Part shown: positions 1-56,935 of the stretch, piece after piece
Layout: each line of letters opens with the position of its first letter
Numbering within the stretch: the first letter of the stretch is position 1
Position numbers and translations under genes: made by a program
DNA from: Myxococcota bacterium
GTDB taxonomy: Bacteria > Myxococcota_A > Polyangia > Polyangiales > Houyiibacteriaceae
NCBI GenBank assembly: GCA_025453555.1
Contig: JALOQC010000017.1
Location: 3,868 to 67,867 of the forward strand
Reading direction: 5' to 3'
Length of the DNA stretch: 64,000 bases
Notes under the pieces: model-generated
The model's database searches: none
What the model was told of the DNA's origin: nothing
What the model saw: only the letters and a program-made list of their open reading frames with translations

Positions 1-2
1 CG

Positions 3-2858
3 GTGTTTCGACTGCCGTCGCAAGGCAGCGCGGCGGGCAGCACCGACCGCACGGTGACGGCGTCTTCCGTCGCGTCGATCGTCGCGGAAGCGGAGGACGG
101 CTCACCCCGACATCGGCGTTGGACCACGACCACCGAAACAGGCGAAGCGAGCCGTGAGTGGGAGCGCCTCTCGGATGGTCGTTCGGTCTCCCGGACGATC
201 AGCGCGATGGGTCGACGAACGGTCACGATCTACGACCTCCTCGATCGCCCCATCTGGAGCGCGGTCGTCGACGCGGCCGGTCAGCCGCTCTTCCACCCCG
301 TCACGTACACCTACGACGACGGCCTCGGTCGGCCGACACGCATCACCCAGGCTCCGACCGACGCGTCTCAGCGGCCCATCCTCACCGATGTCGAACAGAC
401 CCGCACCGTCGAGCTCGACTACCCGGGCGCGGGCCGACTCGGCCACGTCACCCAACCGCACGGCGACTCCGCGTTCTCCCCCGCCGACCCGAACGAGCGG
501 ATGCGCACGAGCTTCGGCTACGACCCGATCGGACGAGTGACGAGCTCGTCGTCGAACGGCGCCGCCACCGGCTTCGGATACGACGTGATGGGCCAGCTCA
601 CGCGCGTCACGCCTCCGGGCCGCGGCGATCACACGATGACCTACTCGGCGGACGAGCAGCTCGCGAGCTACGCACCCCCCGCCTACACCGATCCGGATGC
701 TGCGCCCGGCGCGCCGCGCGTCGCGACGCCGAGCACGTGGGCTCCCGGACCCGACCGCGACGAGGTCGCGAGCTATACCGTCACGCGCGGCGCGGAGACG
801 CGCTCGAGCGGACAGACGTACGACCCGACGACGGGCCGTCTCGCCTCGATGACGATCGGCGGTGTGCCCGGCAGCGTCACGTTCTCCTACGCGCCCCGCG
901 CGGGCGAGAGCGTCAGCGACACCGGCCAGCTTCGACACGCCTCGATGCCGCAGACGCGCGCGGGCTCGTCGGCGGTCGCGACCACGCTCTACTACGACGG
1001 CCCGCTCGGCACCGAGACGCGGACCGAGGGCCTGCCGAACGCGCCGTGGAAGGTGGGTTACCACCACGACGCGGCGGACGAGCTTCGGCTCGCGCACCTC
1101 ACGGTGGCAGTCGGCAGTACGAGCACGAACGTGCCCACGATCGCGTACGACTACGACGCGGACGGACTGATCACCTCGCTCGGCTACGGCTACGACGGGG
1201 ACGGGATCGCGCTCCGTGAAGGCAGCTACGACGAGAACGTGGCGCCGACCCCCACGCTCGCGCGAAGCATGGCGGTCGTCCCGGATCCGCAGACGGGCGT
1301 GCTCGCGCAGACGTGTGTCGGTGGCACGGTGGCGCTCGGCTCGGGCACCTGCTCGGGTCGTGTGAGCACGACGATCACGCCGAACGACTTCGGCGAGCCG
1401 GCGAGCGTGGAGACGACATGGAACGGAAGCTCCGTCTCGGGCAGCCTCTCGTTCCACTACGAGCACGACCGCGCGGGGCGCATCGTCGCCCGCACCGAGG
1501 TGGAGGGCGCGAGCTCGACCAGGCTCGAGTACGGGTATGACGCGCAGGGACGTCTCGAGAACGTGTGGCGCCGCACCTCGCCGACCACGCGCGAGCGCCT
1601 CTACCACTACCAGTACGACGCGAACGGCAACCGCATCGGCTGGGCGCTTCCCTCCGGAACTTGCAACCCGACCGTGAGCACGTGCACGCGCGTCGACGAG
1701 CAGGACCGCCTGCTCAGCGCGGGCGGGGTGAGCTACTGGTACGACCTCCAAGGTCAGCTCGCGACCCGCACCGAGGGCACGCGCGCGGAGACCTTCACGT
1801 ACGACATGGCGGGCAACCTCCGCACCTTCGCGGTGCGCGAAGGCGGAACGCAAACGCGTCACGTTCAATACGCGATCGACGCCTTCGGTCGCCGCGTCGG
1901 GCGCTACGTCGGCACGAGCGGAGCCACGAGCCCGGACCGCTTCTGGGTCTACCAGGACGGCCTCAACCCGGTCGCGCAGCTCAACGCGATGGGCCAGCTC
2001 GAGCTCCTCTTCCTCTACGGCACCCAGGCCCACGTCCCCGACCTCGTGGTCGAGGTGCGCGGTGCGAGCACCACGGACGACGTCGTCTACCGCGTAGTCA
2101 CCGATCAAGTCGGTAGCGTCCGTCGCCTCGTGAACGTCGAGACGGGCGCCGTCGCCGCGTCCTTCGACTACTCCCCCTTCGGTGTCCTCGAGCGCGAAGA
2201 CGGTGCGCTCGCGGCCCGATTCCCCTTCCGCTTCGCGGGCGGGCTGTGGGATGGAGACACGGGCTTGGTGCGGTTCGGTGCGCGGGACTACGATCCGCGG
2301 GTTGGAAGGTGGACGGCGAAGGACCCGATTCTGTGGGGTGGCGGGCAGGGGAATCTGTATGAGTACTGTGGTTCCGAGCCGGTCAACTGTGCTGATCTGA
2401 ACGGTCTCACCCCTTGGTCACTGGACGAGCTCGCGGCTCAAGGTCTGCAGATGCTGCGAGAGCACAAGCCTATGCTCCAGAACGTAGTCGGCAACGTGGC
2501 GCTGTTAGGTGGGCTGGCAACTGACTGGATCATGGGACGCGAGCCTCGAATCGAAACCGCGGAGGTTGGGGGAATCGTAGCGGTCGAGTACTACAACCAC
2601 CCCTGGATGTCTGACGGTTACTCACGCACGCTTGGAGATACGATCTGCTACGCATCGGACGGGAGATCCCCGTTCTTCGGGCGACATCGACAGCATGAGC
2701 ACGCGCACGTCGAGCAGTACGAGGCGCTTGGCATGTCGTACATCCCCTTGCACTTGCTTGCGCAAGTGGCCTCGTACGACCAGACAGGCTCCTACAACCG
2801 AGCGAACGCACTCGAGATTGGGCCATCATCAACACCCTCGAAACCATGGCCATGGTGA
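3..2858 (+). CDS. RHS/YD-repeat polymorphic toxin, C-terminal part (5' end outside the window) with a variable C-terminal toxin tip
   Basis: The ORF is open to the window edge. It has many YD-type repeats (YTYDDGLGRPT, FGYDPIGRV, YGYDAQGRLE, YQYDANGNRI, FTYDMAGNLR). The RHS core-end motif GARDYDPRVGRWTAKDPILWGGGQGNLYEYCGSEPVNCADLNGL lies at about 2270-2405. It is followed by a tail of about 150 aa containing HEHAH (HExxH). Confidence 0.9.
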   Translation: MFRLPSQGSAAGSTDRTVTASSVASIVAEAEDGSPRHRRWTTTTETGEASREWERLSDGRSVSRTISAMGRRTVTIYDLLDRPIWSAVVDAAGQPLFHPVTYTYDDGLGRPTRITQAPTDASQRPILTDVEQTRTVELDYPGAGRLGHVTQPHGDSAFSPADPNERMRTSFGYDPIGRVTSSSSNGAATGFGYDVMGQLTRVTPPGRGDHTMTYSADEQLASYAPPAYTDPDAAPGAPRVATPSTWAPGPDRDEVASYTVTRGAETRSSGQTYDPTTGRLASMTIGGVPGSVTFSYAPRAGESVSDTGQLRHASMPQTRAGSSAVATTLYYDGPLGTETRTEGLPNAPWKVGYHHDAADELRLAHLTVAVGSTSTNVPTIAYDYDADGLITSLGYGYDGDGIALREGSYDENVAPTPTLARSMAVVPDPQTGVLAQTCVGGTVALGSGTCSGRVSTTITPNDFGEPASVETTWNGSSVSGSLSFHYEHDRAGRIVARTEVEGASSTRLEYGYDAQGRLENVWRRTSPTTRERLYHYQYDANGNRIGWALPSGTCNPTVSTCTRVDEQDRLLSAGGVSYWYDLQGQLATRTEGTRAETFTYDMAGNLRTFAVREGGTQTRHVQYAIDAFGRRVGRYVGTSGATSPDRFWVYQDGLNPVAQLNAMGQLELLFLYGTQAHVPDLVVEVRGASTTDDVVYRVVTDQVGSVRRLVNVETGAVAASFDYSPFGVLEREDGALAARFPFRFAGGLWDGDTGLVRFGARDYDPRVGRWTAKDPILWGGGQGNLYEYCGSEPVNCADLNGLTPWSLDELAAQGLQMLREHKPMLQNVVGNVALLGGLATDWIMGREPRIETAEVGGIVAVEYYNHPWMSDGYSRTLGDTICYASDGRSPFFGRHRQHEHAHVEQYEALGMSYIPLHLLAQVASYDQTGSYNRANALEIGPSSTPSKPWPW

Positions 2859-3223
2859 GAAGCGCTTTTGTCCTGAGATGGACGGTGTCAGCATCCCTGA
2901 TAATGTCTTGTGTGTACCCAGGTACGCGAGTAGACGAGGTGTGCGTCGTAGCTGCCGTCGACGACGTTGACTGTGTGTCGAAGTCACTCGATGATATCTG
3001 TCAATGGTCACCCAACGAGGCTGGCTTCCTGGTGTGTCATCCCGAAGGAGAAGACCATCTCGTCATCGCACTGCACGAGGCCGACCTCATCGTGGGTGGG
3101 GCGGTATTCGACGGTAGGTTCGATCGGTGGAGCATTCGGCGACCTCTCACTGTTGATCGAATCGGCAAGGCTGCCGAGGTATGCGCTGTTGGCAGGTTCG
3201 TGGCATCCAGTTGCCCATTCTAG
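2846..3223 (+). CDS. Candidate immunity protein for the RHS toxin tip (hypothetical, 125 aa)
   Basis: It lies immediately downstream on the same strand, and its ATG overlaps the RHS stop by 13 nt. It falls inside the same lower-GC block (about 2400-3230) as the toxin tip. No recognisable motifs. A competing 73-codon ORF exists on the minus strand (3008-3229). Confidence 0.35.
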   Translation: MAMVRSAFVLRWTVSASLIMSCVYPGTRVDEVCVVAAVDDVDCVSKSLDDICQWSPNEAGFLVCHPEGEDHLVIALHEADLIVGGAVFDGRFDRWSIRRPLTVDRIGKAAEVCAVGRFVASSCPF

Positions 3224-3979
3224 TCCCATGTCTCCGAAACAGCTTTCGGAAGGATCCTGCCGTGACGGTGGAACGTTCCACCGTTTTTGCCCAGACCCTG
3301 AAGTGAACGGGGAATCCGCGGGGAACGGGAGAACGTGCCACAGGAACGTGTCAAGAGAACGCACCACCGTATTTGCCCAGACCCAGGAATCATCGGGGAA
3401 TCCGACGGCGCGATGAGCCGGTATGACCACCGCTACCACTGCCGGTGGGGGAACGTGCCACCGTTTCTTCTCAGAACCTGAAATCAACGGGGAGTCCGGC
3501 GGTGCGATGAGCCCGCCCGCCCGCCTCCGGAGCGTGGAACGTGGGGGGAACGTGCCACCGTTTTGCCTGGCGAACGTGGCGAACGTGCGGGGAACGTGCC
3601 ACCGGGGGAACGGGCCACCGCCGCGTGCCAGGGGAACGTGCCAGGGGAACGTGCCACGAACGTGCCAGGGGAACGTGCCACCGTTCTTGCCCAGACCCAG
3701 GAATCATCGGGGAATCCGATGGCGCGATGCGCCGGTATGACCACCACCGTGCCACCGGGGGAACGTGCCACCGTTTTTTTCTCAGAACCTGAAATCAACG
3801 GGGAGTCCGGCGGTGCGATGAGCCGGCCCGCCCGCCCCCGGAACGTGGAACGTGCCGCCGGTTTTGCCCAGAACCCGCGGTGTCAGGAGAATATGCTAGC
3901 CGCGGTGTCAGGAGAATATGCCACCATTTTTACCCAGACCTAGGAATCAACGGGGAATCCGGCGGCGCGATGAACCGGC

Positions 3980-4148
3980 ATGACGACCGCCAAGTCCGCA
4001 CGTCGCTCGCGTCCTCTCCGGTGTGAAGATCCAGAACAGTTGTTCTTCGTGACGACGCGAACCATCGAAGAGGTCTTCTGGCTCGACCCGCTGCTCTGTT
4101 CACGGCTCGCGCCCATGAATCGGGAAGCGCGGCGGGTGGTGGATGCGC
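3980..4148 (+). pseudogene. Truncated 5' copy (about 56 codons) of the RAYT-like gene
   Basis: MTTAKSARRSRPLRCEDPEQLFFVTTRTIEEVFWLDPLLCSRLAPMNREARRVVDA is near-identical to the N-terminus of the ORF at 4676. It is preceded by the same leader module and breaks off into another leader module at about 4150. Confidence 0.85.
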
Positions 4149-4258
4149 GCAACGGGGGGAACGTGCCACCGTTTTTGCCCGCGCAACGGGGGGAACGTGC
4201 CACCGTTTTTGCCCAGACGCCGGAATCAACGGGGAATCCGACGACGCGATGAGCGGGC

Positions 4259-4366
4259 ATGCCTACCGCCAGACCCACGCGCCGCTCGCGTCCCCTCCGG
4301 TGTGAAGATCCCGAACAGTTGTTCTTCGTGACGACGCGAACCATCGAAGAAGTCTTCTGGCTCCAC
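4259..4366 (+). pseudogene. Truncated 5' copy (about 35 codons) of the RAYT-like gene
   Basis: MPTARPTRRSRPLRCEDPEQLFFVTTRTIEEVFWLHP matches the 4676 ORF N-terminus. Homology stops at about 4366. There a different short-repeat segment begins: TGACGTCGTAGC-like 12-mers at 4384, 4408, 4441 and 4464, then GCTGCTGGCCGCCCA x2 at 4491-4521. Confidence 0.85.
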
Positions 4367-4675
4367 CCTGTTAACGGCCGAAATGACGTCGTAGCCGGAT
4401 CCAACATTGACGTCGTAGCGATCCGAGCCGATGGCCGCGCTGACGTCGTACGCGGGACCACGCTGAGGTCGTAGCCGTACGACCCACGCGGCTGCTGGCC
4501 GCCCAGCTGCTGGCCGCCCAGGGGAACGTGCCACCGTTTTTGCCCAGACTGAGGAATCAACGGGGAATCCGACGGTGCGAGGAGCGGGCATGCCCACCGT
4601 GCCAGGGGGGAACGTGCCACCGTTTTTGCCCAGACGCCGGAATCAACGGGGAAACGACACGCGCGATGAGCCGGC

Positions 4676-5667
4676 ATGCCCACCGCCAAGCCCGCGCGCC
4701 GGTCCCGTCCCCTCCGATGTGAAGATCCCGAACACCTGTTCTTCGTGACGACGCGAACTCTCGAAGAAGTCTTCTGGCTCCACCCACTGCTCTGTTCGCG
4801 GCTCGCGCCGGTGAACCGTGAAGCGCGGCGGGTGGTGGATGCGAAGCGGTCGAGGCTCCGCGCGAAGCTGGCGCGCCTCGTCGCGAGCGCGAACCGCCGA
4901 CGGCCCGAGAACCAACCGAAGTTGACGGTGGAGGAAGCGGAGAAGCTCGCGGAGGACTGCGTGAGCTCGGCGCTCGCGCGGGCGCAGAAGCATTGTGCGG
5001 AGAGCGGGCTGCCTCCGGTGGAGGTGTTCGCGGTGGCTACTTCCTCGCCCGCATCGCGCAGACCCTGAACCTGCTGCTCGGTCGCGTGGGTCCCGTGTTC
5101 CCGAGACGCTATGACGCTCAGCCGATCCTCGACGAAGAAGCCGCAGCGGGTCGCATCAAGTACGTGCTCGAGAACCCCAAGAAGGCGGGGCTCGTGAAGT
5201 GCTTCACGGAGTGGCCGGGCTTCGTCGCGGTCGCGGGCCTGCACGACGGCGAGGAGGTCGAGACGCGACACTTCGATCGGTCTGCTTGGCAGCTCGCGAA
5301 GCGCCCGAACGAACGCGAGCGCTACTGGCGTCGCGGCCGCCTGCGTCTGAGCCGACTTCCGGGAATGGAGTCGCTCTCGTGTTCGGCGTACCTCGCGACG
5401 TTGAAGAGCTGGTGCGACTCGCGGCACGCGGATCGCTGCCTGGGCGTCGAAGGCGTGCTCGACGCGGACGTGAACCAGCGACCCAGGAAGCCGAAGCGGT
5501 CGCGTCGTCCCTACGCGTTCGGACGCCCCGAAAAGGTCGACGCGTATCGCGAGGCGAGTCGGCTCCGCTACGCCGCGTACGACGCGGCGCGTGCGCTCAC
5601 GAAGCTCGGCGAGCGCGTCGAGTGGCCGGAGGGCATGTACGCGCCAGGGGGGGCCGTCGCGGCGTAA
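4676..5667 (+). pseudogene. RAYT / IS200-like (Y1 HUH transposase-like) gene, frameshifted and apparently lacking the HUH segment
   Basis: Two overlapping frames: 4676-5068 and 4993-5667. The second carries GRVGPVFPRRYDAQPILDEEAAAGRIKYVLENPKKAGLV, which resembles the conserved G-x-hF-x-RY...Y-hh-x-NP-x-KAGLV block of COG1943/PF01797-type proteins. The first ends ...VEVFAVA, where homologs continue with xxSNHxHLL. That motif is absent in every frame. Confidence 0.7.
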
Positions 5668-5806
5668 TGCGCGAAGCGGTGGGCTGACTTCGAGCGCGCG
5701 CGGGACGTCGCGGCTGCGCCTGCGCTTGCTGCGCTTGGGGGCGAGTCGGTCGACGCGCTCGAGGGTGTCGCGCATCCGGAAGTCCACCGGTGCGACGGGA
5801 AGTCCG

Positions 5807-5950
5807 GCCGCCGCGAGGCAAGATTGGTGGCACGTTACCCCCGGTGGCACGGCGCCATCGCGCGTGCACACTCGGGGTACCACTGGTCCCAGCAGATGCC
5901 GACGCCGCCGCGAGGCAAGATTGGTGGCACGTTACCCCCGGTGGCACGGC
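5807..5950 (+). repeat. Two 47-nt direct repeats carrying the inverted core motif, enclosing an aguB-derived 56-nt segment
   Basis: GCCGCCGCGAGGCAAGATTGGTGGCACGTTACCCCCGGTGGCACGGC occurs at 5807-5853 and 5904-5950. GGTGGCACGTT is the reverse complement of the left-array core AACGTGCCACC. The intervening 5852-5907 is identical to 7971-8026. Confidence 0.9.
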
Positions 5951-5989
5951 ACGTTACCCCTGGGCCCGGAAGCGCCTCCGCCGTCTTGC

Positions 5990-6649
5990 TCATCGCTCGG
6001 TTGGCTTCTTGGTGGCCCGCTGGGCTGCCTTCTTGGTGGCCCGCTTCGGTCCCTTCTGGCTCGCCGTCGCCGGGGCCTTCTCGCGCGGCGTCCGCTTCGC
6101 GACCAGCGGCACGCGCTCGCCCTGCCGCTCATACACGTACGTCCGCCAGACGCGCTCTTCTTTCCCGTACTCGGTCGGCTCGAAGCTCTCGACGACCTGG
6201 CACGGCGGCTCGCCCTCGCGCTGCATCCAGGTGCAATGACCGCTGTCCTTCGCCTCGCGGACGAGCACGAGGCCGCGGGCCTTCGCGAGCGCCGCACCGA
6301 CCCTTCCTGCGTACACCTCGGGAGCGCCCCGCCGCTCACGCTCGAGCGCGAGCTGCTCCAGCCGCCGGCCGAGGGAGTCCGCCTGATAGAACGAGACCCC
6401 GAGCTCGTCGACTTCGATGCACTTGCCGTCCGAGTCGCAGAACCAGTTGACGAAGTCGAACCCCCCCACGACGGTGTAGGTCTTTCCGCCTCGCGTCACC
6501 TTCCTCGGCGACGTCTCGAAGGTCACCGTCCGACCGTCCCCGTGGGGCTCGTCTTCCGCAATGAAAGCCAGGGCTCGCACCGAGAGGTCCCCGGCGAGCG
6601 CCGGGGGGACTTTCGTCCATTCGCTCCTTCGACGCCGGCTGGGCACCAC
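5990..6649 (-). CDS. Hypothetical protein with a Lys/Ala-rich (histone H1-like) C-terminal tail
   Basis: 219-codon ORF with a protein-like composition (GGKTYTVVGGFDFVNWFCDSDGKCIEVDELGVSFYQADSLGRR...) and the tail KAPATASQKGPKRATKKAAQRATKKPTER. No family recognised and the start is uncertain. Confidence 0.5.
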   Translation of the reverse strand: MVPSRRRRSEWTKVPPALAGDLSVRALAFIAEDEPHGDGRTVTFETSPRKVTRGGKTYTVVGGFDFVNWFCDSDGKCIEVDELGVSFYQADSLGRRLEQLALERERRGAPEVYAGRVGAALAKARGLVLVREAKDSGHCTWMQREGEPPCQVVESFEPTEYGKEERVWRTYVYERQGERVPLVAKRTPREKAPATASQKGPKRATKKAAQRATKKPTER

Positions 6650-6957
6650 TCAGTCGTCCGCCGCGCAGGCGCGATGAGTTGCAGGGGTTGCCGCCAGATC
6701 CCGTACTGCGATGAGAGGCTGACCCACTCTGAGTCAGCCTCTCAGTTCGTTGAGATATCGTCAAGAGGTGTGGATCGCGTAGCCGGATCAGGCGGCGTTC
6801 TTCCTCGACTCTCTGCGCTTCATGGATTCGATTTTTCGTACTGAAGGAGCCTTCGGCTCACGCGTGGTCGTCGAGTCGCTCACGACCGCGTCGAGATCGT
6901 CGCGTTCGGGGAAGCCCCGTCGACGCAGCGCTTCGTCCTCACCACGGGCAGCAGCGT

Positions 6958-7062
6958 GTGCCCAGCGCGGAACCGGGAGAACGCGCTGCCCAGCGCGGAA
7001 CGGCGGGGAGAACGTGCCAGGGAAACGTCCCACGGCGGCCCGACAACCAACCGAAACTGACG
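6958..7062 (+). repeat. Remnant of the repeat element plus an internal fragment of the RAYT-like gene
   Basis: A ~28-nt unit TGCCCAGCGCGGAACnGGnGAGAACGnG occurs twice, with the core GAGAACGTGCCAGGGAAACGTCCCAC. Then CGGCCCGACAACCAACCGAAACTGACG matches CGGCCCGAGAACCAACCGAAGTTGACG at about 4905-4931 inside the RAYT-like ORF (RRPENQPKLT versus RRPDNQPKLT). Confidence 0.7.
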
Positions 7063-7101
7063 AAGCTCGAAAGGTTTTGCTTCGGTTCGCCCGATTCCGC
7101 T

Positions 7102-7521
7102 TCAATTCCCCTCGATCACCCTCGGGGCGCCTTCGTCGCGGAGCCACTTCGCGGCTCGCTCGACCACGTCGCCGAGCAGGATCACGTCAGCGTCTTCGAC
7201 CGTGGCGCCGCAGCCGAGCGCCTTCTTCATCTTGGTCGCGAGCTCGTCGAGGCGGGTCTCGGGGAGGCCTCGCACGCGGGTGGCCGTCTTTCCGCCGCGG
7301 CCCTTTCGCTCGCGGGAGAGCACGATCTTGGCGCTGCCCCAGGTGGGCGCTCGGGGTGCGGGGGCCGACGCGGGCGAAGCTTCTCGGTCGGCCGGGTCAG
7401 CGGCCGACGAGGCTTCGACCTTCGGCGCCGGCGGCAGTTCGTCCTTCTTCACCGCGAGCGCCGCGAAGGGGTTCTGCTTGAGGGGGGCCGCGTCGGGCTC
7501 GATGCGCTTCTTCGAGGCCAT
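7102..7521 (-). CDS. yciH: Translation initiation factor SUI1/eIF1-like protein (YciH family)
   Basis: 139 aa. The C-terminal domain KIVLSRERKGRGGKTATRVRGLPETRLDELATKMKKALGCGATVEDADVILLGDVVERAAKWLRDEG has the typical SUI1 fold signature. Confidence 0.85.
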   Translation of the reverse strand: MASKKRIEPDAAPLKQNPFAALAVKKDELPPAPKVEASSAADPADREASPASAPAPRAPTWGSAKIVLSRERKGRGGKTATRVRGLPETRLDELATKMKKALGCGATVEDADVILLGDVVERAAKWLRDEGAPRVIEGN

Positions 7522-7605: not shown

Positions 7606-8469
7606 TCAAACCGGGTTCTTGCCGTCCGCCGTGAGCAATACTTGGTACAGCTCCGGGCGGCGGTCGCGGAAGAAACCCCAGTTCGCGCGTTCGATCGCGA
7701 GCGCGTCGAGGTCGAAGACCGCGTGGGCGAAGCCTTCGTCGGTGCGGCCGAGCTCGGACACTTTGTCGCCGCGCGGGTCGGCCACGAAGGAGGAGCCGTA
7801 GAAGCTCATCGCGGCCTCGGTGCCGACGCGGTTCGCGGCCGCCACCGGCATCGCGTTGCTCACCGCGTGCCCGATCATCGCGCGCTGCCAGGGATCTTTG
7901 GTGTCCATCTCGGGCGCGTGGGGCTCGGTGCCGATCGCGGTCGGGTAGAGCAGGAGCTCCGCACCCTGCAGCGCCATCGCGCGTGCACACTCGGGGTACC
8001 ACTGGTCCCAGCAGATGCCGACGCCGATCGCGCCGAAGCGCGTCTTCCACACGCGAAAGCCGGTGTCGCCGGGGCGGAAGTAGAACTTCTCTTCGTAGCC
8101 GGGGCCGTCCGGGATGTGGCTCTTGCGGTAGAGGCCGAGCAGCGCGCCGTCCGCGTCGACCATCGCGAGGCTGTTGTAGTAGGCGTGGCCCGCGCGCTCG
8201 AAGAAGCTCACCGGGATCACGACCCCGAGCTCCTTCGCGAGCGCCTGGATCGTGGCGATCGTCGGGTGCCCTTCGAGCGGATGCGCGGTCGCGAAGAAGC
8301 GTTCTTCTTCGGTCTGACAGAAGTAGGGGCCCTCGAAGAGCTCGGACGGCAGGATCACGTTCGCGCCCGCGGCGGCGGCTTCGCGGACGAGCTCCACGAC
8401 GCGCGCGACGTTGGTCTCGCGATCGGCTCCGAGGGCGCATTGCAGGACGGCGACGTGCACGGAACGCAT
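7606..8469 (-). CDS. aguB: N-carbamoylputrescine amidase-like carbon-nitrogen hydrolase
   Basis: VAVLQCALG...NVILPSELFEGPYFCQ...GLYRKSHIPDGPGYEEKFYFRPGDTGFRVW...GVGICWDQWYPECAR...LLYPTAIGTEP gives the nitrilase-superfamily E-K-C triad context typical of AguB. The start was taken at MRSVHVAV (8469), because the longer ORF to 8580 adds an Arg-rich non-protein-like extension. Confidence 0.85.
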   Translation of the reverse strand: MRSVHVAVLQCALGADRETNVARVVELVREAAAAGANVILPSELFEGPYFCQTEEERFFATAHPLEGHPTIATIQALAKELGVVIPVSFFERAGHAYYNSLAMVDADGALLGLYRKSHIPDGPGYEEKFYFRPGDTGFRVWKTRFGAIGVGICWDQWYPECARAMALQGAELLLYPTAIGTEPHAPEMDTKDPWQRAMIGHAVSNAMPVAAANRVGTEAAMSFYGSSFVADPRGDKVSELGRTDEGFAHAVFDLDALAIERANWGFFRDRRPELYQVLLTADGKNPV

Positions 8470-8750
8470 GGCACGGGGTTTCGCACGTGTGAGCCGCGGG
8501 GCCAAGCGGCGCGAGGCGCGGGTCCGATGGGGTCGAACACGGCGACTGCGCGTCGGGATCGCGCGATTCGACCGGGTCACTCGTGCGAGGCGACGCTCGC
8601 GCCGTCCTACTCCGCGATGGCGCGCGTCGGAAACGTTTCACTCGCACGGTCGACGCCTATGCCCCGTAGGAGGCTCCGCTACGTCACCTTCGCGTGAGCT
8701 TCTCGACACGGGGCTCGGGCGATCCGTCGAACGCTGGTAGGTTTCGCACC

Positions 8751-9299: not shown

Positions 9300-9368
9300 G
9301 CCCTCGCACGCTCCCGTCGCCGTGCGTCGCGACGATCGGGTGCTTCGCGAGCGTCGAAGATCGAGCGT

Positions 9369-9459
9369 GACGATCGAGCGCGACGATCGAGCGCTACGAT
9401 CGAGCGCGACGATCGAGCGCGACGATCGAGCACGACGATCGAGCACGACGATCGAGCGC
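9369..9459. repeat. 13-nt intergenic tandem repeat, 7 copies (GACGATCGAGCGC)
   Basis: Read directly: GACGATCGAGCGC x7 with three single-base variants (TAC..., ...CAC x2). It lies between the lipoprotein gene and the YhfC-like gene. Confidence 0.95.
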
Positions 9460-13267: not shown

Positions 13268-13569
13268 CGACCCCACAGCAGCGGTCGACTTCGCACGCCG
13301 AGCACCGTCACGCCATGGGTGCCGTCGATGCGCTCGCATCCGGCGCCAAGCGTGTCACGAGCGACGACACGTGGGCGTGTGGACTTCGCGACGCACCGTC
13401 CAGGGCGGCGTGTCGTTCCGTGACCTCCCTGTGAGCTTCAGCGGCCGAACCGTTGCGCGTGTCGCGCGTGATGGGCGATTCGACGCCCAGTTGGAACGAG
13501 CCGCTCGGAGCCGATTCGATGGGCCCGGACGGACGTCGATGCAGGGCGCGTGGCGACGATCGACGCGAC

Positions 13570-13648
13570 GGGTGACTCGACGGGTGACTCGACGGGTGAC
13601 TCGACGGGTGACTCGACGGGTGACTCGACGGGTGACTCGACGGGTGAC
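13570..13648. repeat. 12-nt intergenic tandem repeat, 6.5 copies (GGGTGACTCGAC)
   Basis: Read directly: units start at 13570, 13582, 13594, 13606, 13618 and 13630, with a partial unit at 13642. Confidence 0.95.
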
Positions 13649-17373: not shown

Positions 17374-20300
17374 TCAAGACGGCCCGATCGTCCGCTGAAC
17401 GAGCCGCGCGACGATCGCGCCGAAGCGTCGCACGGCCTCGTCGGTCGGGAGATCGCGGACCTCGACGTAGTCGTCGAAGCAACGCTCTTCGAGCGGACGC
17501 ACCGCGATCTGCGCGCACGCCATGCCCTCGCGGCCGAGGCGCCGCACCAGCTTGCGCAGCGCTTCCACCGAGCACTCGGTCGGGAGCCCGTCGCTGATCA
17601 TCACGAGCAGCTTCGCGCGACGGCCCGAGCGCCGCGCGACCTCCGCCACGTGCGCGAGCGCCGCCGCGTCGTTGTTGCCTCCACCGGGGTGGAGCGACGC
17701 CGCCGTGGAGCGCTCCGCGTCGCCCGCGTCGTAGAGCTGCCGATCCGTGAAGCCGAACACCCGCAGATCCACGCCCCGCAGACCGCGCGCGCTCTCCGCG
17801 AGCAACACCGCGAAGCGACGCGCGAGCTCGATGCTGGTCCCGGTCATCGAGCCCGAGCAGTCGACCGCGACGCCGAGGAAGAGATCCGCGCGCGGCAGCA
17901 GCACCCGCGTCTGCATCACGTGCGGATCGCCGCGCAACACGAGGCCACGAAGCCGTGCGCGATCGAGCCGCGTGCCCGCGAGCCGCGCGCCCACCGTGAC
18001 CCGCGCGAGCCCGAGCCGCTCGAGCTCGTCGCGCAGCCGCCGCGCCGGCCGCGCCACCTCGCGCGCGAGCTCGCGTTGCCGATCGGGGCTCGGTGGTAGC
18101 CGAATCACCTCGCGAATCGGCGTGAAGCCGTCCTCCGGGCCGACGTTGATCTGCAGCGCGCCGCCCGCGCGACCGCTGCCACCGGCGGTCTTCGACGGGG
18201 GCGCCAAGATGCGCTCGACCTCCCGCTGCACCTCCTCGTCGGAGATGTCCTCGCGGTCTTCGAGCGATCGCGGGTCGTCGCCGGGGATCTCCTCCGGCGT
18301 GCCGAGGCAGCGCAGCAGCGCGGCCTCGTCGCCGAAGATCTCCGCCAGCTTCTTCGTGAGCTCGTAGAGCGTCGTGGTGTCGAGGTCCTTGAAGTGGCGG
18401 TCGAAGAGCGCGAGCGCCTCACGCACCCGCGGATCCGCGTCGCGATCGCCGAGCCCCATGCGCAGCGCCCGCACGAAGCGCGCGAACGAGCGCCCCTCCT
18501 CGCACGCCGCGCGGAGGATGGCGCCGCTCTCGATGCGCACCTGATCGGGCTCGAACGCCACCAGCAGCCGACCTGCGAGCACCCGCGCGACGTCCGGCCC
18601 GAGCGCGTACACCAACGTCGCGATCGGGAGCTCGCGCCCCGAATGTTGGAACGCGTACGACGCGAGGCGCTTGAGCCGATCGCCGTCGCGGGCTTCGCGC
18701 GCGCGCAGCCGGCGCTCGAGGTGCTCGTCGAGCACGAGGTTGTAGAGGTGTTGGAGGTGCTCGCGCCCCGCCTTCGCCCAGAGCTCGATCGACGCCGCGT
18801 CCGCGTGCCACGCCTGGTGCCCGAGCTCGTGCATCACGAGCCCCTCGACGACGTCGCGCCCGTGCGCCGCGCCGTCGAAGACCGGCCATCCACCGACGAA
18901 GATCGTCGAGCTCCCGAGCCGCGTGTGTCCGAGCTGATTTCGTCCCGTCGTGAGCCGCACCCGCACCACGCGCCCCGTGAGCTCGCGGCCGCGCCGCACG
19001 CCCCACGCGAAGATCTCCGCGAGCGTGCGCAGCTTGTGATTTCGCGTGCTGGATCGTGCGTCGGCGAGGGTGTCCGCCGCGCGCGCGCGTACCTCTGCAT
19101 CGCGTGCTTGGATCAAGAGCGCCGCGAGCTCCCGGAGCTCCGGACGTGGCCCGTCGCGTCGTGCGATCCGCGCCGCCGTCGCCTCGTGAGCCCCGAGCCC
19201 GAGGGCGCCGATCACCGTTGCCCGCGGATCGGCCTCCGTGCCCGCGCGCACGTCGGCCGCGGTCAGCGCGGCTTCCACGAGCAGCGGCGCGCCGATCGGA
19301 TCGCCTCGACGCGAGAGCGTGAACGCGGCCTCGAGCCGGAGCGGCGCCATGCGCTCCGTGCCTTCCTCGAGGAAACGTACGAGCGCGTGGTGCGCCTCCT
19401 CGTCGGTGATGGAGGCCGCGCCGTCGAGGCAGGCCCGCACCGCGAGCTCGTACGCCGCGGGGTGCGGCGAGCTCACGAGCGCGAGCGCGATGTCGTGCAG
19501 ACCGACCCTCGCGATCAGCCGATCGACGTCCACCGCCTCGAGGCAGCTCGATCCTTCGAGCGGCGCGTTCGCGGCGGCGAGGGCGAGTGCGGGCTCCGCG
19601 AGCTCGAGCGCGAGATGAAAGCGCGCCGCCGCCGGCCAGCGAGGCAGCCGCGCGAGCAGCGTCGACCGCGTCACGTGCGAGAAGAGCGAGCCGAAGCGCG
19701 CGACCGCGATCGCGCCCTCGCCGCCCGCGTCGAGCAGACCGAGCAGCGCGTCCTCGCCGGGCGCGCCGAGCTCGAAGAGCCGCTGCACGGCCTCTTCCGC
19801 GAAGGGTGGCGCGCCTGCCGCGACGAGCGACGCCAAATGCGCGACGTCGCGCGAGCCGCGGAGCTCGCGCAAGGTCTCGCTCGCGTCGACGAAGGTGTGC
19901 TTCGAGCTCGCGCGCGAAGGCAATCCGTCGAGCTTCGCGAACGACGAGAGCACCGCCCGCGTCGCGTCGTCGAGGCTGGGCAAGAGCGCCATCACCGCCG
20001 CGTGGCGCGTCCGCATGAGGGTGTCCGCCACGCCCGCTTCGAAGAGCGCGACGAACATGCGCGCCGCGTGCACGCCCAGCTCCGAACGAAAGGTCTCCAC
20101 GAGCCGGTCGAGCAGCGCGTCGCTCGCGAGCCGCGCGAGCCGCTCCTTGCCGTGCCAACGCAGCAATCCGAACGCCCGCGCGCACGCGCACCACACCTCG
20201 CGCCGCGCGAGCACGGATCGGCTCTCTCGCCAGGTCGCGAGCGCCCGCGGGAGCGACGAGCGCGGATCGTCGATCGGGGGCTCGTCTGCCCCCTCGTCCG

Positions 20301-55451: not shown

Positions 55452-55455
55452 CCGC

Positions 55456-55537
55456 GCGCACGTTCACTCGCGCACGTTCACTCGCGCACGTTCACTCGCG
55501 CACGTTCACTCGCGCACGTTCACTCGCGCACGTTCAC
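55456..55537. repeat. 14-nt tandem repeat x5.8 derived from the last codons plus stop codon of the L,D-transpeptidase gene
   Basis: GCGCACGTTCACTC units start at 55456, 55470, 55484, 55498 and 55512, with a partial unit at 55526. Unit 5 holds the real stop (TCA at 55520-55522), and units 5-6 encode ...VNVRE*. The repeat fills almost the whole 68-nt convergent spacer. Confidence 0.95.
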
Positions 55538-56935
55538 GAAGGTCGTCGGCTCGTCCTCGCGAGGGAAGATCGCGGTCCACCCCGGCGGCACCGCGGGCTC
55601 GCTGCGCTCGTAGAGCACGCGCGCATCGCGCGGCGAGAGGTTCACGCAGCCGTGGCTCCGTCGGCGCCCGAAGTCGTCGTGCCAGAACGCCGCGTGCAGC
55701 CCGTTGGCGCCCTCGAAGTACTGCACCCAGGGCACCCGCTCGATCGCGTAGTTGTGCTCCGCGTCGACGCGCTCGAGATCGTCCATGTCGCTGTACGCGA
55801 GCTTGACCCACGTGCGGTGCAGTCCAGGCGGCGTCGCGGTCGGGCCCGCGCGTCCGCTGCTCACGAGCGTCGCGTAGAGCGCGCGATCGCCGCGGAAGAA
55901 GACGAGCACTTGGCTGCGCACGTCCACGTCGATCCACGTTCCGTCCGCGGGCACGCCTTCGGGGCGCGGCGTCGGTCGCCACGTGTGCAGGCCGCTCGTG
56001 CGCGCGAAGGTTCCGTCGACGAGCTCCGCCCAGCCGCGCTCGATCGTGCGCACCTTCAACACCTCGCGCGCGCCCGCGCGCCGCAGCACGCGCCCGCCGC
56101 GACGCTCGTGGATCGTGGTGCCACCGCGCTTCACCCACGCGACGTCCATCGTCCCTTCGAGCTCGACGCCCACGAAGTCGCTGCCTCGCGCCATGCGCAG
56201 CGAGTCGGCGTCCACGTAGAGCCCGCGCAGCGTGCGGGCCCAGCGCGCGCCGTCGTGCCGCACGAAGCCCGTGACCACGATCCCGAAGCCTTCGCCGAGC
56301 GCGGAGTAGTAGTCGTCGGTGAGCGCGTCGCGCGGGTGGATGAACGCGCGCGTGCCGTCGAACGCGACGAACGCGTAGTCGTAGGGGAGGTGGCGACCTT
56401 CGCCGATCGTCGGCACCACGGGGCGCGCGATCGGTGCGTCCACGATGGCGACGTGGTGCCCACACACCCACGCGCCGTCGTCGACCGCGTACCACTCGAC
56501 GGGGCAGCCTTCACCCGCGACGCGCGCGCGGATCTCGAAGCGAGCACCGAGCGCGAGGGTGCCGCGGCGTGGCGCGTCGGCGCGCGGTGCCAGGTAGACC
56601 GCGGCGTCGGCGTTCTGGATCTCGATCGTGCGCACCCTCGGCGCAGGTCGGCTCGACGCGGGGCGGTTCGACGCGGGGTGGTTCGGCGCGGGGTGGTTCG
56701 GCGCAGGGCGGTTCGGCGCGGGGTGGTTCGGCGCAGGGCGGTTCGGCGCGGGGTGGTTCGGCGCGGGGTGGTTCGGCGCGGGGTGGTTCGGCGCGGGGCG
56801 GTTCGGCGCAGGGCGGTTCGACGCTGGGCTGGGCGCGATCCGCGCGTTCGGAGGCTGCGCGCGGGGCTGTGCGTCGCTCCCCGCCGCGAGGGCGGCGCCG
56901 AGCGCGACGAGGATCCCGAGCACGACGCGTCGCAT
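55520..56935 (-). CDS. L,D-transpeptidase (YkuD domain) with an N-terminal PAPN(H/R) pentapeptide repeat linker
   Basis: The catalytic motif is RRSHGCVNLSPRDARVLY. The signal peptide is MRRVVLGILVALGAALAAG. A 15-nt in-frame repeat of about 12.6 copies lies at 56639-56827. Confidence 0.85.
   Translation of the reverse strand: MRRVVLGILVALGAALAAGSDAQPRAQPPNARIAPSPASNRPAPNRPAPNHPAPNHPAPNHPAPNRPAPNHPAPNRPAPNHPAPNHPASNRPASSRPAPRVRTIEIQNADAAVYLAPRADAPRRGTLALGARFEIRARVAGEGCPVEWYAVDDGAWVCGHHVAIVDAPIARPVVPTIGEGRHLPYDYAFVAFDGTRAFIHPRDALTDDYYSALGEGFGIVVTGFVRHDGARWARTLRGLYVDADSLRMARGSDFVGVELEGTMDVAWVKRGGTTIHERRGGRVLRRAGAREVLKVRTIERGWAELVDGTFARTSGLHTWRPTPRPEGVPADGTWIDVDVRSQVLVFFRGDRALYATLVSSGRAGPTATPPGLHRTWVKLAYSDMDDLERVDAEHNYAIERVPWVQYFEGANGLHAAFWHDDFGRRRSHGCVNLSPRDARVLYERSEPAVPPGWTAIFPREDEPTTFVNVRE

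Follow-up and report, generated by a model that had tools for sequence, protein, structure and literature searches.

Anatomy of the locus

The window, by which we mean the whole 64-kb stretch of DNA analysed, opens with an RHS/YD-repeat polymorphic toxin gene on the forward strand (3–2858; Pfam RHS_repeat 7e-15, TEN_YD-shell 2e-15), whose RHS core extends to about 2400, ahead of a C-terminal toxin tip of lower GC content (GC 0.57–0.60 at 2400–3400). The stop codon of this gene is overlapped by a 125-aa ORF from the ORF list (2846–3223, + strand), which has no Pfam or NCBIfam match and which, from its position, is a putative immunity gene. Small ORFs are found at the matching position in the related loci L002, L003, L018 and L032.

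Downstream lies a pseudogene for a Y1 HUH transposase of the RAYT/TIRYT-like type (4676–5667, + strand), delimited by alignment to 352-aa orthologues. The Y1/RAYT similarity noticed in the first-pass annotation of this DNA holds, but the simple frameshift that it proposed does not: a 67-nt deletion at 5037|5038 takes out VVMSNHLHLVVRAPGKNLAAFM, the HUH motif, and shifts the frame. The tyrosine motif RIKYVLENP is retained, with RIKYVLENPKKAGLV in the window aligning to YIYINPVKHGWV of the E. coli RAYT structure 4ER8, and the Y and N are invariant across the alignment. The HUH motif, MSNH[LIV]HLV, is present in all 20 full-length homologues and missing from the window copy, which, because of this deletion, is a catalytically dead pseudogene. 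The 352-aa orthologues from Sandaracinus/Polyangiales have intact MSNHLHLV (HUH) and Y-x-x-x-NP motifs, and the intact orthologue in L018 shares 91% DNA identity with the window gene.

The gene is preceded by its left end (4605–4678, + strand), in which a conserved 74-nt leader, with invariant columns and the pattern TTTTTGCCC…AATCAACGGGGAA…GCGATGA…ATG, comes after the terminal motif GGGGGGAACGTGCCACC; across 23 leader copies at 9 loci, motif and ATG are 72–75 nt apart, in most cases 74. Immediately upstream is a penultimate unit (4521–4604, + strand) comprising left-end motif, leader, ATG and three codons, 88% identical to 4607–4685. Farther upstream, a left-end stutter array that we call array A (3265–4367, + strand) contains ~17 nested units that begin at the left-end outer boundary GGGGAACG…. 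When short stubs are included, ~20 units match the gene leader, all with the common left boundary GGGGAACGTGCC… and reaching 10–239 nt inward; parsed against the master leader, the units of array A start at relative position 1–11 and end at 15–239. The roughly ten leader modules described in the first pass are indeed there, as module pieces CCACCGTTTTTGCCCAGAC (ten copies in the window), GGAATCAACGGGGAATCCG (nine) and GCGATGAGCCGGCATG (eight). So are the two truncated gene heads carried by two of the units. The first (3980–4150, + strand) encodes aa 1–57, with 86% identity in tblastn with the family protein P0001 and 84% identity to 4607–4843 in blastn, and the second (4259–4368/4372, + strand; tblastn and blastn) encodes aa 1–36 to 1–38 and ends right after CTGGCTCCACCC. 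Two heads in L003 stop at the same codon as this second head (L003 relative positions 181 and 182).

Array A opens, as had been noted, with a perfect 20-nt palindrome, ACGGTGGAACGTTCCACCGT (3265–3284, matching on both strands), in which a right-end-type half, GGTGGAACGTT, overlaps a left-end-type half, GGAACGTTCCACC; this first motif copy is the only palindromic one. The array also holds a higher-order 311-nt duplication (3320–3543 against 3631–3854, 87% identity) and a perfect 34-nt tandem repeat (4146–4214). The long units are only 83–91% identical to the present master leader, and therefore many of them are old or come from other paralogues. Between the array and the penultimate unit lies a piece beginning GTTAACGGCCGAAATGACGTCGTAGCC… with 4–5 GACGTCGTAGC-like direct repeats (4368–4520, + strand). 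It is not filler, being conserved at the corresponding place in three other genomes, such that it precedes the left-end motif in four in all (the window, L003 at 5739, L018 at 4096 on the − strand and L032 at 9671); a diverged copy, GTTAGCGGCCGAAATGA…, stands after the right end in L030.

On the other side of the gene, sequence comparison identified a right-end copy (5807–5853, − strand) composed of GGCAAGATTGGTGGCACGTTACCCCC, the inverted counterpart of the left end, and a partial unit, GGTGGCACGG. A second right-end copy with two partial units (5904–5960, − strand; parsed as units −35..0 and −13..−1) shares the common outer boundary …CACGTTACCCC, giving 3–4 right-end units in the window. The two 47-nt right repeats reported previously (5807–5853 and 5904–5950) are 100% identical, and our analysis corrects the description of the ~50 nt between them, which are a copy from the neighbouring aguB gene: 56 nt of templated filler (5852–5907, + strand), 100% identical to aguB at 7971–8026, overlap the flanking right-end copies by 2 nt and 4 nt. 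Filler with such microhomology may be a sign of DNA synthesis at the right end. The core unit thus spans ~4605–5842 and consists of a left end with terminal motif GGGGAACGTGCCACC and 74-nt leader, the gene, and a right end with the inverted motif. Beyond it, an older remnant (6990–7065, + strand) contains the left-end stubs GAGAACGTGCCA and GGGAAACGTCCCAC joined to gene nt ~4896–4930 and then to a SUI1 flank; L040 has the same junction. A plasmid or phage origin of the locus was rejected, since plasmid records matched the aguB filler only.

Distribution of the motif and the protein family

Scanning the window for GGAACGTGCCACC with at most one mismatch gave 16 matches against a chance expectation of 0.07: 13 on the + strand (3270–4621) and three on the − strand, at 3267 (the other half of the palindrome), 5826 and 5923. 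The 12-mer GAACGTGCCACC, at the same stringency, gave 17 matches, every one inside 3267–5934. These 16–17 matches within 3265–5935 agree with the multi-copy motif and inverted right-side copies first described. In the other ~58 kb of the window neither scan found a copy, the only related sequence being a degenerate stub at 7010. Among 185,579 species genomes, clusters occurred only at two RHS loci (one Sandaracinus MAG), and the remaining 24 matches were singletons in unrelated taxa. Both scans therefore speak against a dispersed element. Within ~200 kb of flank at 10 related loci, motifs adjoin the gene only, with one exception, in L111.

The motif does not behave as a REP hairpin either. Single-stranded DNA folding of the left and right ends, the palindrome and the 4368–4510 piece, on both strands, yielded no structure that convincingly exceeded shuffled controls in stability (z between +1.3 and −0.9 for the two ends; best overall z = −1.8, for the 4366–4510 piece). 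The RNAalifold consensus of 10 leaders came to −3.5 kcal/mol and showed neither covariation nor conserved structure. Rfam returned nothing at E ≤ 1 for 2800–7200, and a sigma-70 consensus scan of 3200–6100 found no promoter. A sigma-54 promoter was also rejected, on sequence grounds: the spacing TGCCAC-N5-TTGC is present at the left end, but the invariant GG is missing, and the L002 sequence mismatches at two positions.

Profile searches place the gene family in the Y1 superfamily. NCBIfam REP_Tyr_transpos matches the window copy at E 4e-6 and P0001 at E 3e-15, the 56 bits of the latter being below the equivalog cutoff of 80; for Pfam Y1_Tnp the 352-aa subfamily is sub-threshold (at most 20 bits against 23), and ~300-aa relatives exceed the threshold. 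The score cutoffs of Pfam and NCBIfam thus miss this Y1 subfamily. For the AF2 model (pLDDT 87), the best Foldseek match was 4ER8 (E 4e-5, probability 1.00, TM-score on target 0.61), which is also the only PDB sequence match, followed by the ISDra2, IS200 and IS608 TnpA proteins. Intact orthologues are accordingly modelled as Y1 HUH transposases nearest to E. coli RAYT. Between β1 and the HUH strand they have an inserted helical segment of roughly 85 aa, and their C-terminal domain comprises ~150 aa. The 352-aa subfamily was seen only in Sandaracinus/Polyangiales myxobacterial assemblies, where the genomes of relatives carry 2–3 diverged paralogues, 58–84% identical (at least 3 in GCA_041389665.1; 2, at 84% identity, in GCA_019637115.1). 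Some orthologues have been named RayT by JGI; tnpB was sought at the related loci and seen in none.

Stutter at both ends, in mirror image and fixed at each outer boundary, is seen in relatives down to 40% identity, and every family member inspected has 3–8 copies at each end. Inverted terminal repeats at both ends occur also in L003, L032, L036–L039 and L111. The stuttered motif differs between loci – GAAACGTGCCACCC in L003 and L001, AAAGGTTCCACCA in L002, GAGGATCCACCA in L110 and L111, GCGTGCCAGGGAC, ACGTGCCASGGAC and CCTGCCAGGCC in L036–L039, and GGGGTCAGAG/C in L107 and L064 – and in each relative co-varies with the protein. For L003, L018 and the window, the outer starts of ~40 left-end units fall within ±11 nt of a single position, and their inner ends lie anywhere from 12 to 522 nt inward. 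The right-end units seen in the window, L003 and L111 share one end position, with starts 8–152 nt inward of it. The pile-ups are, then, nested partial copies of the element ends, anchored at the outer boundary. Truncation points common to independent lineages fall at relative positions ~47–54, 80–87 and 181–182. CCACC stands at the ends of 11/20 units in the window, 2/9 in L003 and 0 to 1/10 in L018, which gives only a hint of a universal truncation or target site. Of the REP/RAYT interpretation first offered for the locus, what survives is a RAYT-related Y1 gene flanked by inverted copies of its cognate motif and a pile-up tied to the element's own end; the REP identity does not.

Origin of the pile-ups

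We consider it probable (roughly 60%) that the locus is a decayed copy of a Y1 (HUH) element flanked by terminal inverted repeats (TIRs), a ‘TIRtron’-like relative of REP/RAYT, and that its pile-ups were left by the action of the transposase. TIRtrons, whose TIR-associated tyrosine transposases are termed TIRYT (Di Nocera et al. 2013, PMC3733652), correspond approximately to TnpA_Y1 subclass 2.1 (Quentin et al. 2018, PMC6006769). This class suits the arrangement better than REP/RAYT does, in that TIRs, not REP hairpins, likewise flank a RAYT-like Y1 gene, begin with GGGG and often form dimers or clusters, and paralogues are diverged and low in copy number. In the window, TIR clusters are present at both the left and right ends, the pair being GGGGAACGTGCCACCGTTTTTGCC (left) and GGGGGTAACGTGCCACCAATCTTGCC (right, reverse complement). 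The published motif GGGGWSAS is ascribed to ‘some’ TIRs only; the window TIR, starting GGGGAACG, has the GGGG but not the WSAS, and the distant relatives L064 and L107 (GGGGTCAGAC, GGGGTCAGAG) carry the published motif in stuttered arrays. Several features set the window locus apart from described TIRtrons: a 352-aa protein that has a ~85-aa helical insertion and a C-terminal domain of ~150 aa and that falls short of the Pfam and NCBIfam thresholds; a TIR of GGGGAACGTGCCACC instead of GGGGWSAS, the left copy of which opens a 74-nt leader running to the start codon; pile-ups that hold up to ~500 nt of the gene; and, for the close clade, residence in RHS toxin islands.

Elements of the IS200/IS605 family (IS608, ISDra2) share the Y1 HUH fold and cutting at a defined boundary tied to a short site. 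However, their TnpA is ~150 aa long with a Y-x-x-x-Q motif, whereas the protein here has 352 aa and Y-x-x-x-NP; their ends are asymmetric and carry, in place of a TIR, subterminal hairpins on one strand, whereas TIRs and no hairpins are found here; and they occur in many near-identical copies, often with tnpB, in contrast to the 58–84% identical paralogues of the present family. In TnpA length, tyrosine motif, hairpins, copy number and tnpB alike, the locus lacks what marks that family.

The arrays would be scars of repeated nicking and rejoining at the element termini. The transposase, acting in cis before decay or in trans from a paralogue, would nick repeatedly at the terminal boundary and hold the 5′ end covalently, and a variable 3′ end would then be rejoined to this fixed 5′ end. 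The 3′ end could come from strand-displacement synthesis of limited extent, from template switching or from a CCACC-like pseudo-site inside the element, and each cycle would add or leave one truncated end copy. We infer the nick site, the chemistry and the involvement of an enzyme rather than slippage from sequence, the presumed cleavage site being read from the junctions only. HUH rolling-circle initiators such as M13 gene II and pC194 RepA cause illegitimate recombination in which one endpoint lies at the nick site and the other is variable; these are phage and plasmid replication initiators, and the events are mainly deletions. By analogy, one endpoint here may likewise mark an enzyme's nick site while the other varies, although a chromosomal Y1 transposase homologue, two inverted ends and nested duplications would be involved.

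Some observations count against an enzymatic origin. The window copy, lacking its HUH motif, could not itself have made recent events; junction microhomology fits template switching without an enzyme; the 13–16-nt stubs are explicable by ordinary slippage in a genome with many unrelated tandem arrays; and no stable single-strand hairpins of the IS200/IS605 or RAYT type were found. Neither an empty site nor a target duplication was found, and mobility is thus putative. Simple nested transposition was rejected: insertion of a whole element into a resident copy should leave long gene tails on the right, and only right-end stubs of ≤152 nt are seen. A CRISPR-like or integron-like array was likewise set aside, as the units are irregular in length and spacing and neither cas nor intI lies nearby. 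On the action of RAYT/TIRYT enzymes in vivo, and on the multiplication of their cognate repeats, published work (PMC3733652, PMC6006769, PMC8266576) offers models and no in-vivo record. Loci of this kind may preserve such a record, in dozens of junctions that recur in several genomes, have one endpoint fixed at each terminus and carry filler and microhomology; from these follow testable predictions of nick site, strand cut and DNA synthesis.

Alternatively, the arrays could have been built without the transposase, by generic slippage during replication and by unequal crossing-over, in a genome that is GC-rich and prone to repeats, anchoring being due to G-run microhomology. The many unrelated perfect 12–15-nt tandem arrays in the window, the 34-nt repeat and 311-nt duplication of array A, and the microhomology at several junctions, such as GGGGAA at leader positions 1–6 and 43–48, are all consistent with this. 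Yet slippage predicts neither a fixed boundary with variable inner ends nor its mirror image at the other end, nor the recurrence of the pattern, in many genomes, at Y1 genes whose motifs are unrelated, nor non-templated or foreign filler at junctions, and we consider it unlikely. It is more doubtful still that the multi-copy ends are not scars but selected arrays of binding sites or promoters that regulate or titrate the protein, as in Tn7 or Mu. Such selection could account for the presence of multiple copies at each end in every inspected member, and for a leader so highly conserved in sequence and length; however, copy number, spacing and unit length vary freely even between the close relatives L018, L040 and the window, and the units include dead gene heads and foreign filler, with many stubs too short to hold a leader.

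The classical REP/RAYT label does not fit the locus, because the motif has no stable hairpin and is not dispersed and because relatives have two or three paralogues per genome. In the REPtron arrangement, the 13-mer would be a dispersed REP/REPIN and the gene a single-copy domesticated transposase. There are resemblances to E. coli TnpA-REP: 4ER8 comes first among the structural matches, HMM and fold alike mark the gene as RAYT-like, some orthologues bear the JGI name RayT, the Y-x-x-x-NP motif is that of class 2, inverted copies of a cognate element flank the gene on both sides (at least 13 on the + strand upstream and 2 full copies on the − strand downstream), and motif and protein co-vary. 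Against these stand a module that folds no better than shuffled sequence, with no conserved or covarying hairpin; motifs confined to the locus within the 64 kb, next to the gene in the 10 related loci apart from the L111 exception, and clustered elsewhere only as described above; paralogues where a single copy would be expected; and a protein twice as long. We regard a REPtron as very improbable, and the window region as a rearrangement-prone island with a pseudogene rather than a REP system. Repeats are hard to assemble and L003 has homopolymer errors, but we attach almost no weight to collapsed or chimeric assembly as the source of the pile-up, given the same architecture, with locus-specific variants, in independent NCBI, ENA and JGI assemblies of several genomes.

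Association with RHS toxin islands

In the closest clade (≥74% identity), the TIR-flanked gene lies beside RHS/Tc toxin–immunity genes at 6 of the 7 loci with a readable upstream flank. In L002 and L003 the RHS genes were assigned from Pfam matches, having escaped a tblastn search with the RHS protein of the window. RHS/Tc toxin islands are hot spots of bacterial antagonism and gene turnover, with which this subfamily is consistently associated; we found no literature link between RAYT and Rhs. The H-rpt (ISAs1-family) of E. coli Rhs elements is a transposase-type element commonly lodged by rhs toxin/immunity modules, and its transposase is a DDE enzyme unrelated to Y1. It may be analogous in its setting, though not in its enzyme, and it is not known to carry an end-anchored stutter.

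It is conceivable, though distinctly unlikely, that RHS toxin islands have in the Y1 ends a system for handling cassettes, one that moves non-transposase cargo. If so, the ends would bracket and mobilise immunity or toxin-tip genes, the left-end leader would be a portable promoter and start site, and the conserved ends would provide a right-hand anchor for swaps of toxin tips and immunity genes between strains. The six close-clade loci that adjoin RHS/Tc toxin–immunity pairs are one hint of this. Another is L041, where a left-end leader is fused to an ORF of no relation and a right-end-like site follows 2.4 kb farther on. L041 also shares with the window the RHS core (92%) and the downstream genes (90%), and differs from it in what lies between them: toxin tip, immunity gene and Y1 array.

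A broken Y1 transposase gene

The locus at 3265–5960 is best read as a decayed TIRtron-like Y1 element, that is, a Y1 transposase gene with terminal inverted repeats. Its two open reading frames (4676–5068 and 4993–5667) are halves of a single gene, and their conceptual join retrieved 34 homologues, of which the full-length ones, from Sandaracinus and Polyangiales assemblies and from metagenomes, are 352 aa long. In the protein alignment the window copy lacks exactly VVMSNHLHLVVRAPGKNLAAFM, and at the DNA level, with the 91% identical, intact gene of the related locus L018 as reference, a 67-nt deletion lies at 5037|5038. The HUH catalytic motif is lost and the frame is broken, which makes the gene at 4676–5667 a pseudogene; the tyrosine motif RIKYVLENP is retained.

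The kinship with Y1/RAYT transposases that had been proposed from the sequence holds, in that the intact orthologue (P0001) matches the NCBIfam model REP_Tyr_transpos with an E-value of 3e-15, though Pfam Y1_Tnp remains below threshold for the 352-aa subfamily (best score 20 bits versus 23). A family profile matched only E. coli TnpA-REP among PDB sequences, and an AlphaFold model (pLDDT 87, pTM 0.87) found its best structural match in 4ER8, the structure of TnpA-REP (E 4e-5), followed by the ISDra2, IS200 and IS608 transposases. From the NCBIfam match, the PDB profile search and the predicted model, the 352-aa proteins can be placed in the Y1 superfamily. When 1.84 billion representatives were searched with a profile, 311 clusters had E ≤ 1e-30 and 2,948 had E ≤ 1e-10; many of these are ~300 aa long, with the core and C-terminal domain but without the N-terminal helical insertion, and some of these shorter relatives exceed the Pfam threshold.

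Element ends and nested partial copies

Among close relatives, the leader from the left-end motif to the ATG is strongly conserved, running from a variable outer 8–10 nt through CCACC-N-TTTTTGCCC, AA(T/A)CAACGGGGAA and GCGATGA to the start codon, with a motif-to-ATG spacing of 72–75 nt, mostly 74. The right-hand repeat corresponds to the left end in inverted orientation (reverse complement GGGGGTAACGTGCCACCAATCTTGCC versus GGGGAACGTGCCACCGTTTTTGCC), and the gene thus has terminal inverted repeats. Immediately outside the left-end motif there is in every case a conserved piece (GTTAACGG, starting with GTTAACGGCCGAAATGACGTCGTAGCC; 4368–4520 in the window) that contains two to five direct repeats resembling GACGTCGTAGC. 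Four genomes have it ahead of the left end, the copies in relatives being at L003 5735–5830, L018 ~4100–4020(−) and L032 9669–9720, and a diverged copy lies near L030 1359. The element may truly end with this piece on the left, or the piece may serve as a binding array or a target.

When the left array was mapped onto the last complete leader and gene, ~20 units were all seen to begin at nearly the same point, no more than a few bases from the G-run that precedes AACGTGCC, and to stop 10 to 239 nt inward. The two truncated gene heads reported by the first-pass annotation were recovered by both blastn and tblastn, at 3980–4150 (aa 1–57) and 4259–4372 (aa 1–38). By the same parse, units stop at relative positions 34 to 522 in the related locus L003 and 12 to 200 in L018. 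The right side mirrors the left in L111, L003 and the window: 13 right-end units in L111 share one outer end base and begin 8–22 nt inside, those of L003 are 13, 16, 143 and 152 nt long, and those of the window 35 and 13 nt. At both termini, therefore, partial copies are nested, with the outer boundary as their fixed point. Truncation points recur across independent lineages (relative positions ~47–54, 80–87 and 181–182), many of those in the window fall directly after CCACC, and junctions sometimes contain a few unrelated bases. Between the two right-end repeats lies a 56-nt perfect copy (5852–5907) of the interior of aguB (7971–8026), the N-carbamoylputrescine amidase gene, with 2- and 4-nt overlaps at its junctions; it looks like templated filler and suggests that, at a right end that had been broken or nicked, DNA synthesis switched templates.

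We infer that the termini may have been nicked and rejoined repeatedly, the enzyme keeping hold of one strand end while the partner end varied, a process that would leave nested end copies behind. The main rival is generic slippage in a repeat-prone genome, which accounts for the short stubs and suits a window rich in unrelated tandem arrays, but leaves unexplained both the anchoring at the two ends and the recurrence of such arrays around Y1 genes with unrelated motifs.

Motif spread and co-variation among relatives

That recurrence extends to family members of as little as 40% identity, around which two-sided arrays are found with a different motif for each. Loci L036–L039 have upstream arrays in the plus orientation and downstream arrays inverted, L110 and L111 have GAGGATCCACCA, and one genome carries two motifs, AAAGGTTCCACCA at L002 and GAAACGTGCCACCC at L003. 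With each relative having its own motif, motif and protein co-vary, as would be expected of an enzyme and its putative binding site. The more distant L064 and L107 carry stuttered arrays of GGGGTCAGAC and GGGGTCAGAG, which fit the GGGGWSAS motif described for TIRYT elements (PMC3733652). Within-genome paralogues are 58–84% identical, a divergence like that of class-2 TnpA_Y1 genes and unlike that of active IS copies (PMC6006769). Reading frames at L003 5860–10000 are untrustworthy: homopolymers there differ at many places by a single base, with motif runs of T3, T4 or T5 and frameshifted gene copies, which suggests that the MAG contains errors from long-read assembly.

The pile-up of motifs in the window is real: 16 matches to GGAACGTGCCACC with at most one mismatch all fall within 3267–5935 (0.07 expected), a second scan found 17 matches to the 12-mer GAACGTGCCACC and none beyond the locus, and longer stretches of the module are present in 10, 9 and 8 copies. 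The opening palindrome (3265–3284) was confirmed, and the two 47-nt right-hand repeats are identical by blastn. As for the REP/RAYT label, protein kinship and inverted bracketing stand, and the nature of the repeat speaks against it, with neither hairpin nor dispersal. Folded as ssDNA, neither end is more stable than shuffled sequence; ten leaders share no covarying structure, and Rfam and promoter scans of the locus gave no matches. A REP system is made very unlikely by the spread of the motif, which does not occur in the 58 kb of the window outside the locus, forms clusters (as AACGTGCCACC-N(1-2)-TTTTGCC) only at two RHS loci of a single Sandaracinus MAG among 185,579 species-representative genomes, and, in ~200 kb of flanks of related loci, has cognates adjoining the gene only, L111 excepted. 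The two extra arrays of L111, at 876–1277(−) and 8542–8686(+), hold eight and four copies at distances of as much as 9 kb from the Y1 gene, and are the sole hint of dispersal at any locus examined.

The surrounding genomic island

In the window, the Y1 gene is preceded by an RHS toxin gene and by a small ORF placed where an immunity gene would be. In the clade of at least 74% identity, which has seven loci with a readable upstream flank, an RHS or SpvB/TcdB/RHS toxin and a small ORF lie directly upstream in six (the window, L002, L003, L018, L027/L041 and L032); this context was not seen at the seventh, L001, and is absent in the 65–70% and 40% clades. At the syntenic locus L041, from a related strain, the RHS core is 92% and the SUI1/aguB genes are 90% identical to the window (window 1–2406 versus L041 10624–12060, and 7102–9352 versus 18044–20197, 90–92% identical), and the two differ in between, in toxin tip, immunity region and Y1 array.

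Only a 5′-truncated fragment of the RHS gene is present at L041, with a degenerate Y1 leader and head ahead of it. At L041 13103–15530, a left-end leader cut at position ~58 is fused to an unrelated 212-aa ORF, followed by a DUF4034/TPR gene and a right-end-like site, ACAAGATTGGTGGCACGTT; this stretch may represent cargo carried between a left and a right end. An older remnant, in which left-end stubs and a ~35-nt internal gene fragment are fused to the SUI1 flank, is common to the window (6990–7065) and L040 (1543–1875), so the island is older than their split and has a long history of rearrangement. A 219-aa ORF (5990–6649, minus strand) that separates this remnant from the right end has a lysine-rich C-terminal tail and no match in Pfam or NCBIfam. 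Elsewhere in the window are near-perfect tandem arrays of short period, at 9348–9459 (13 nt ×8.5), 13562–13648 (12 nt ×7.2), 55455–55537 (14 nt ×5.9) and 56638–56829 (15 nt ×12.8), and the genome seems prone to short tandem repeats.
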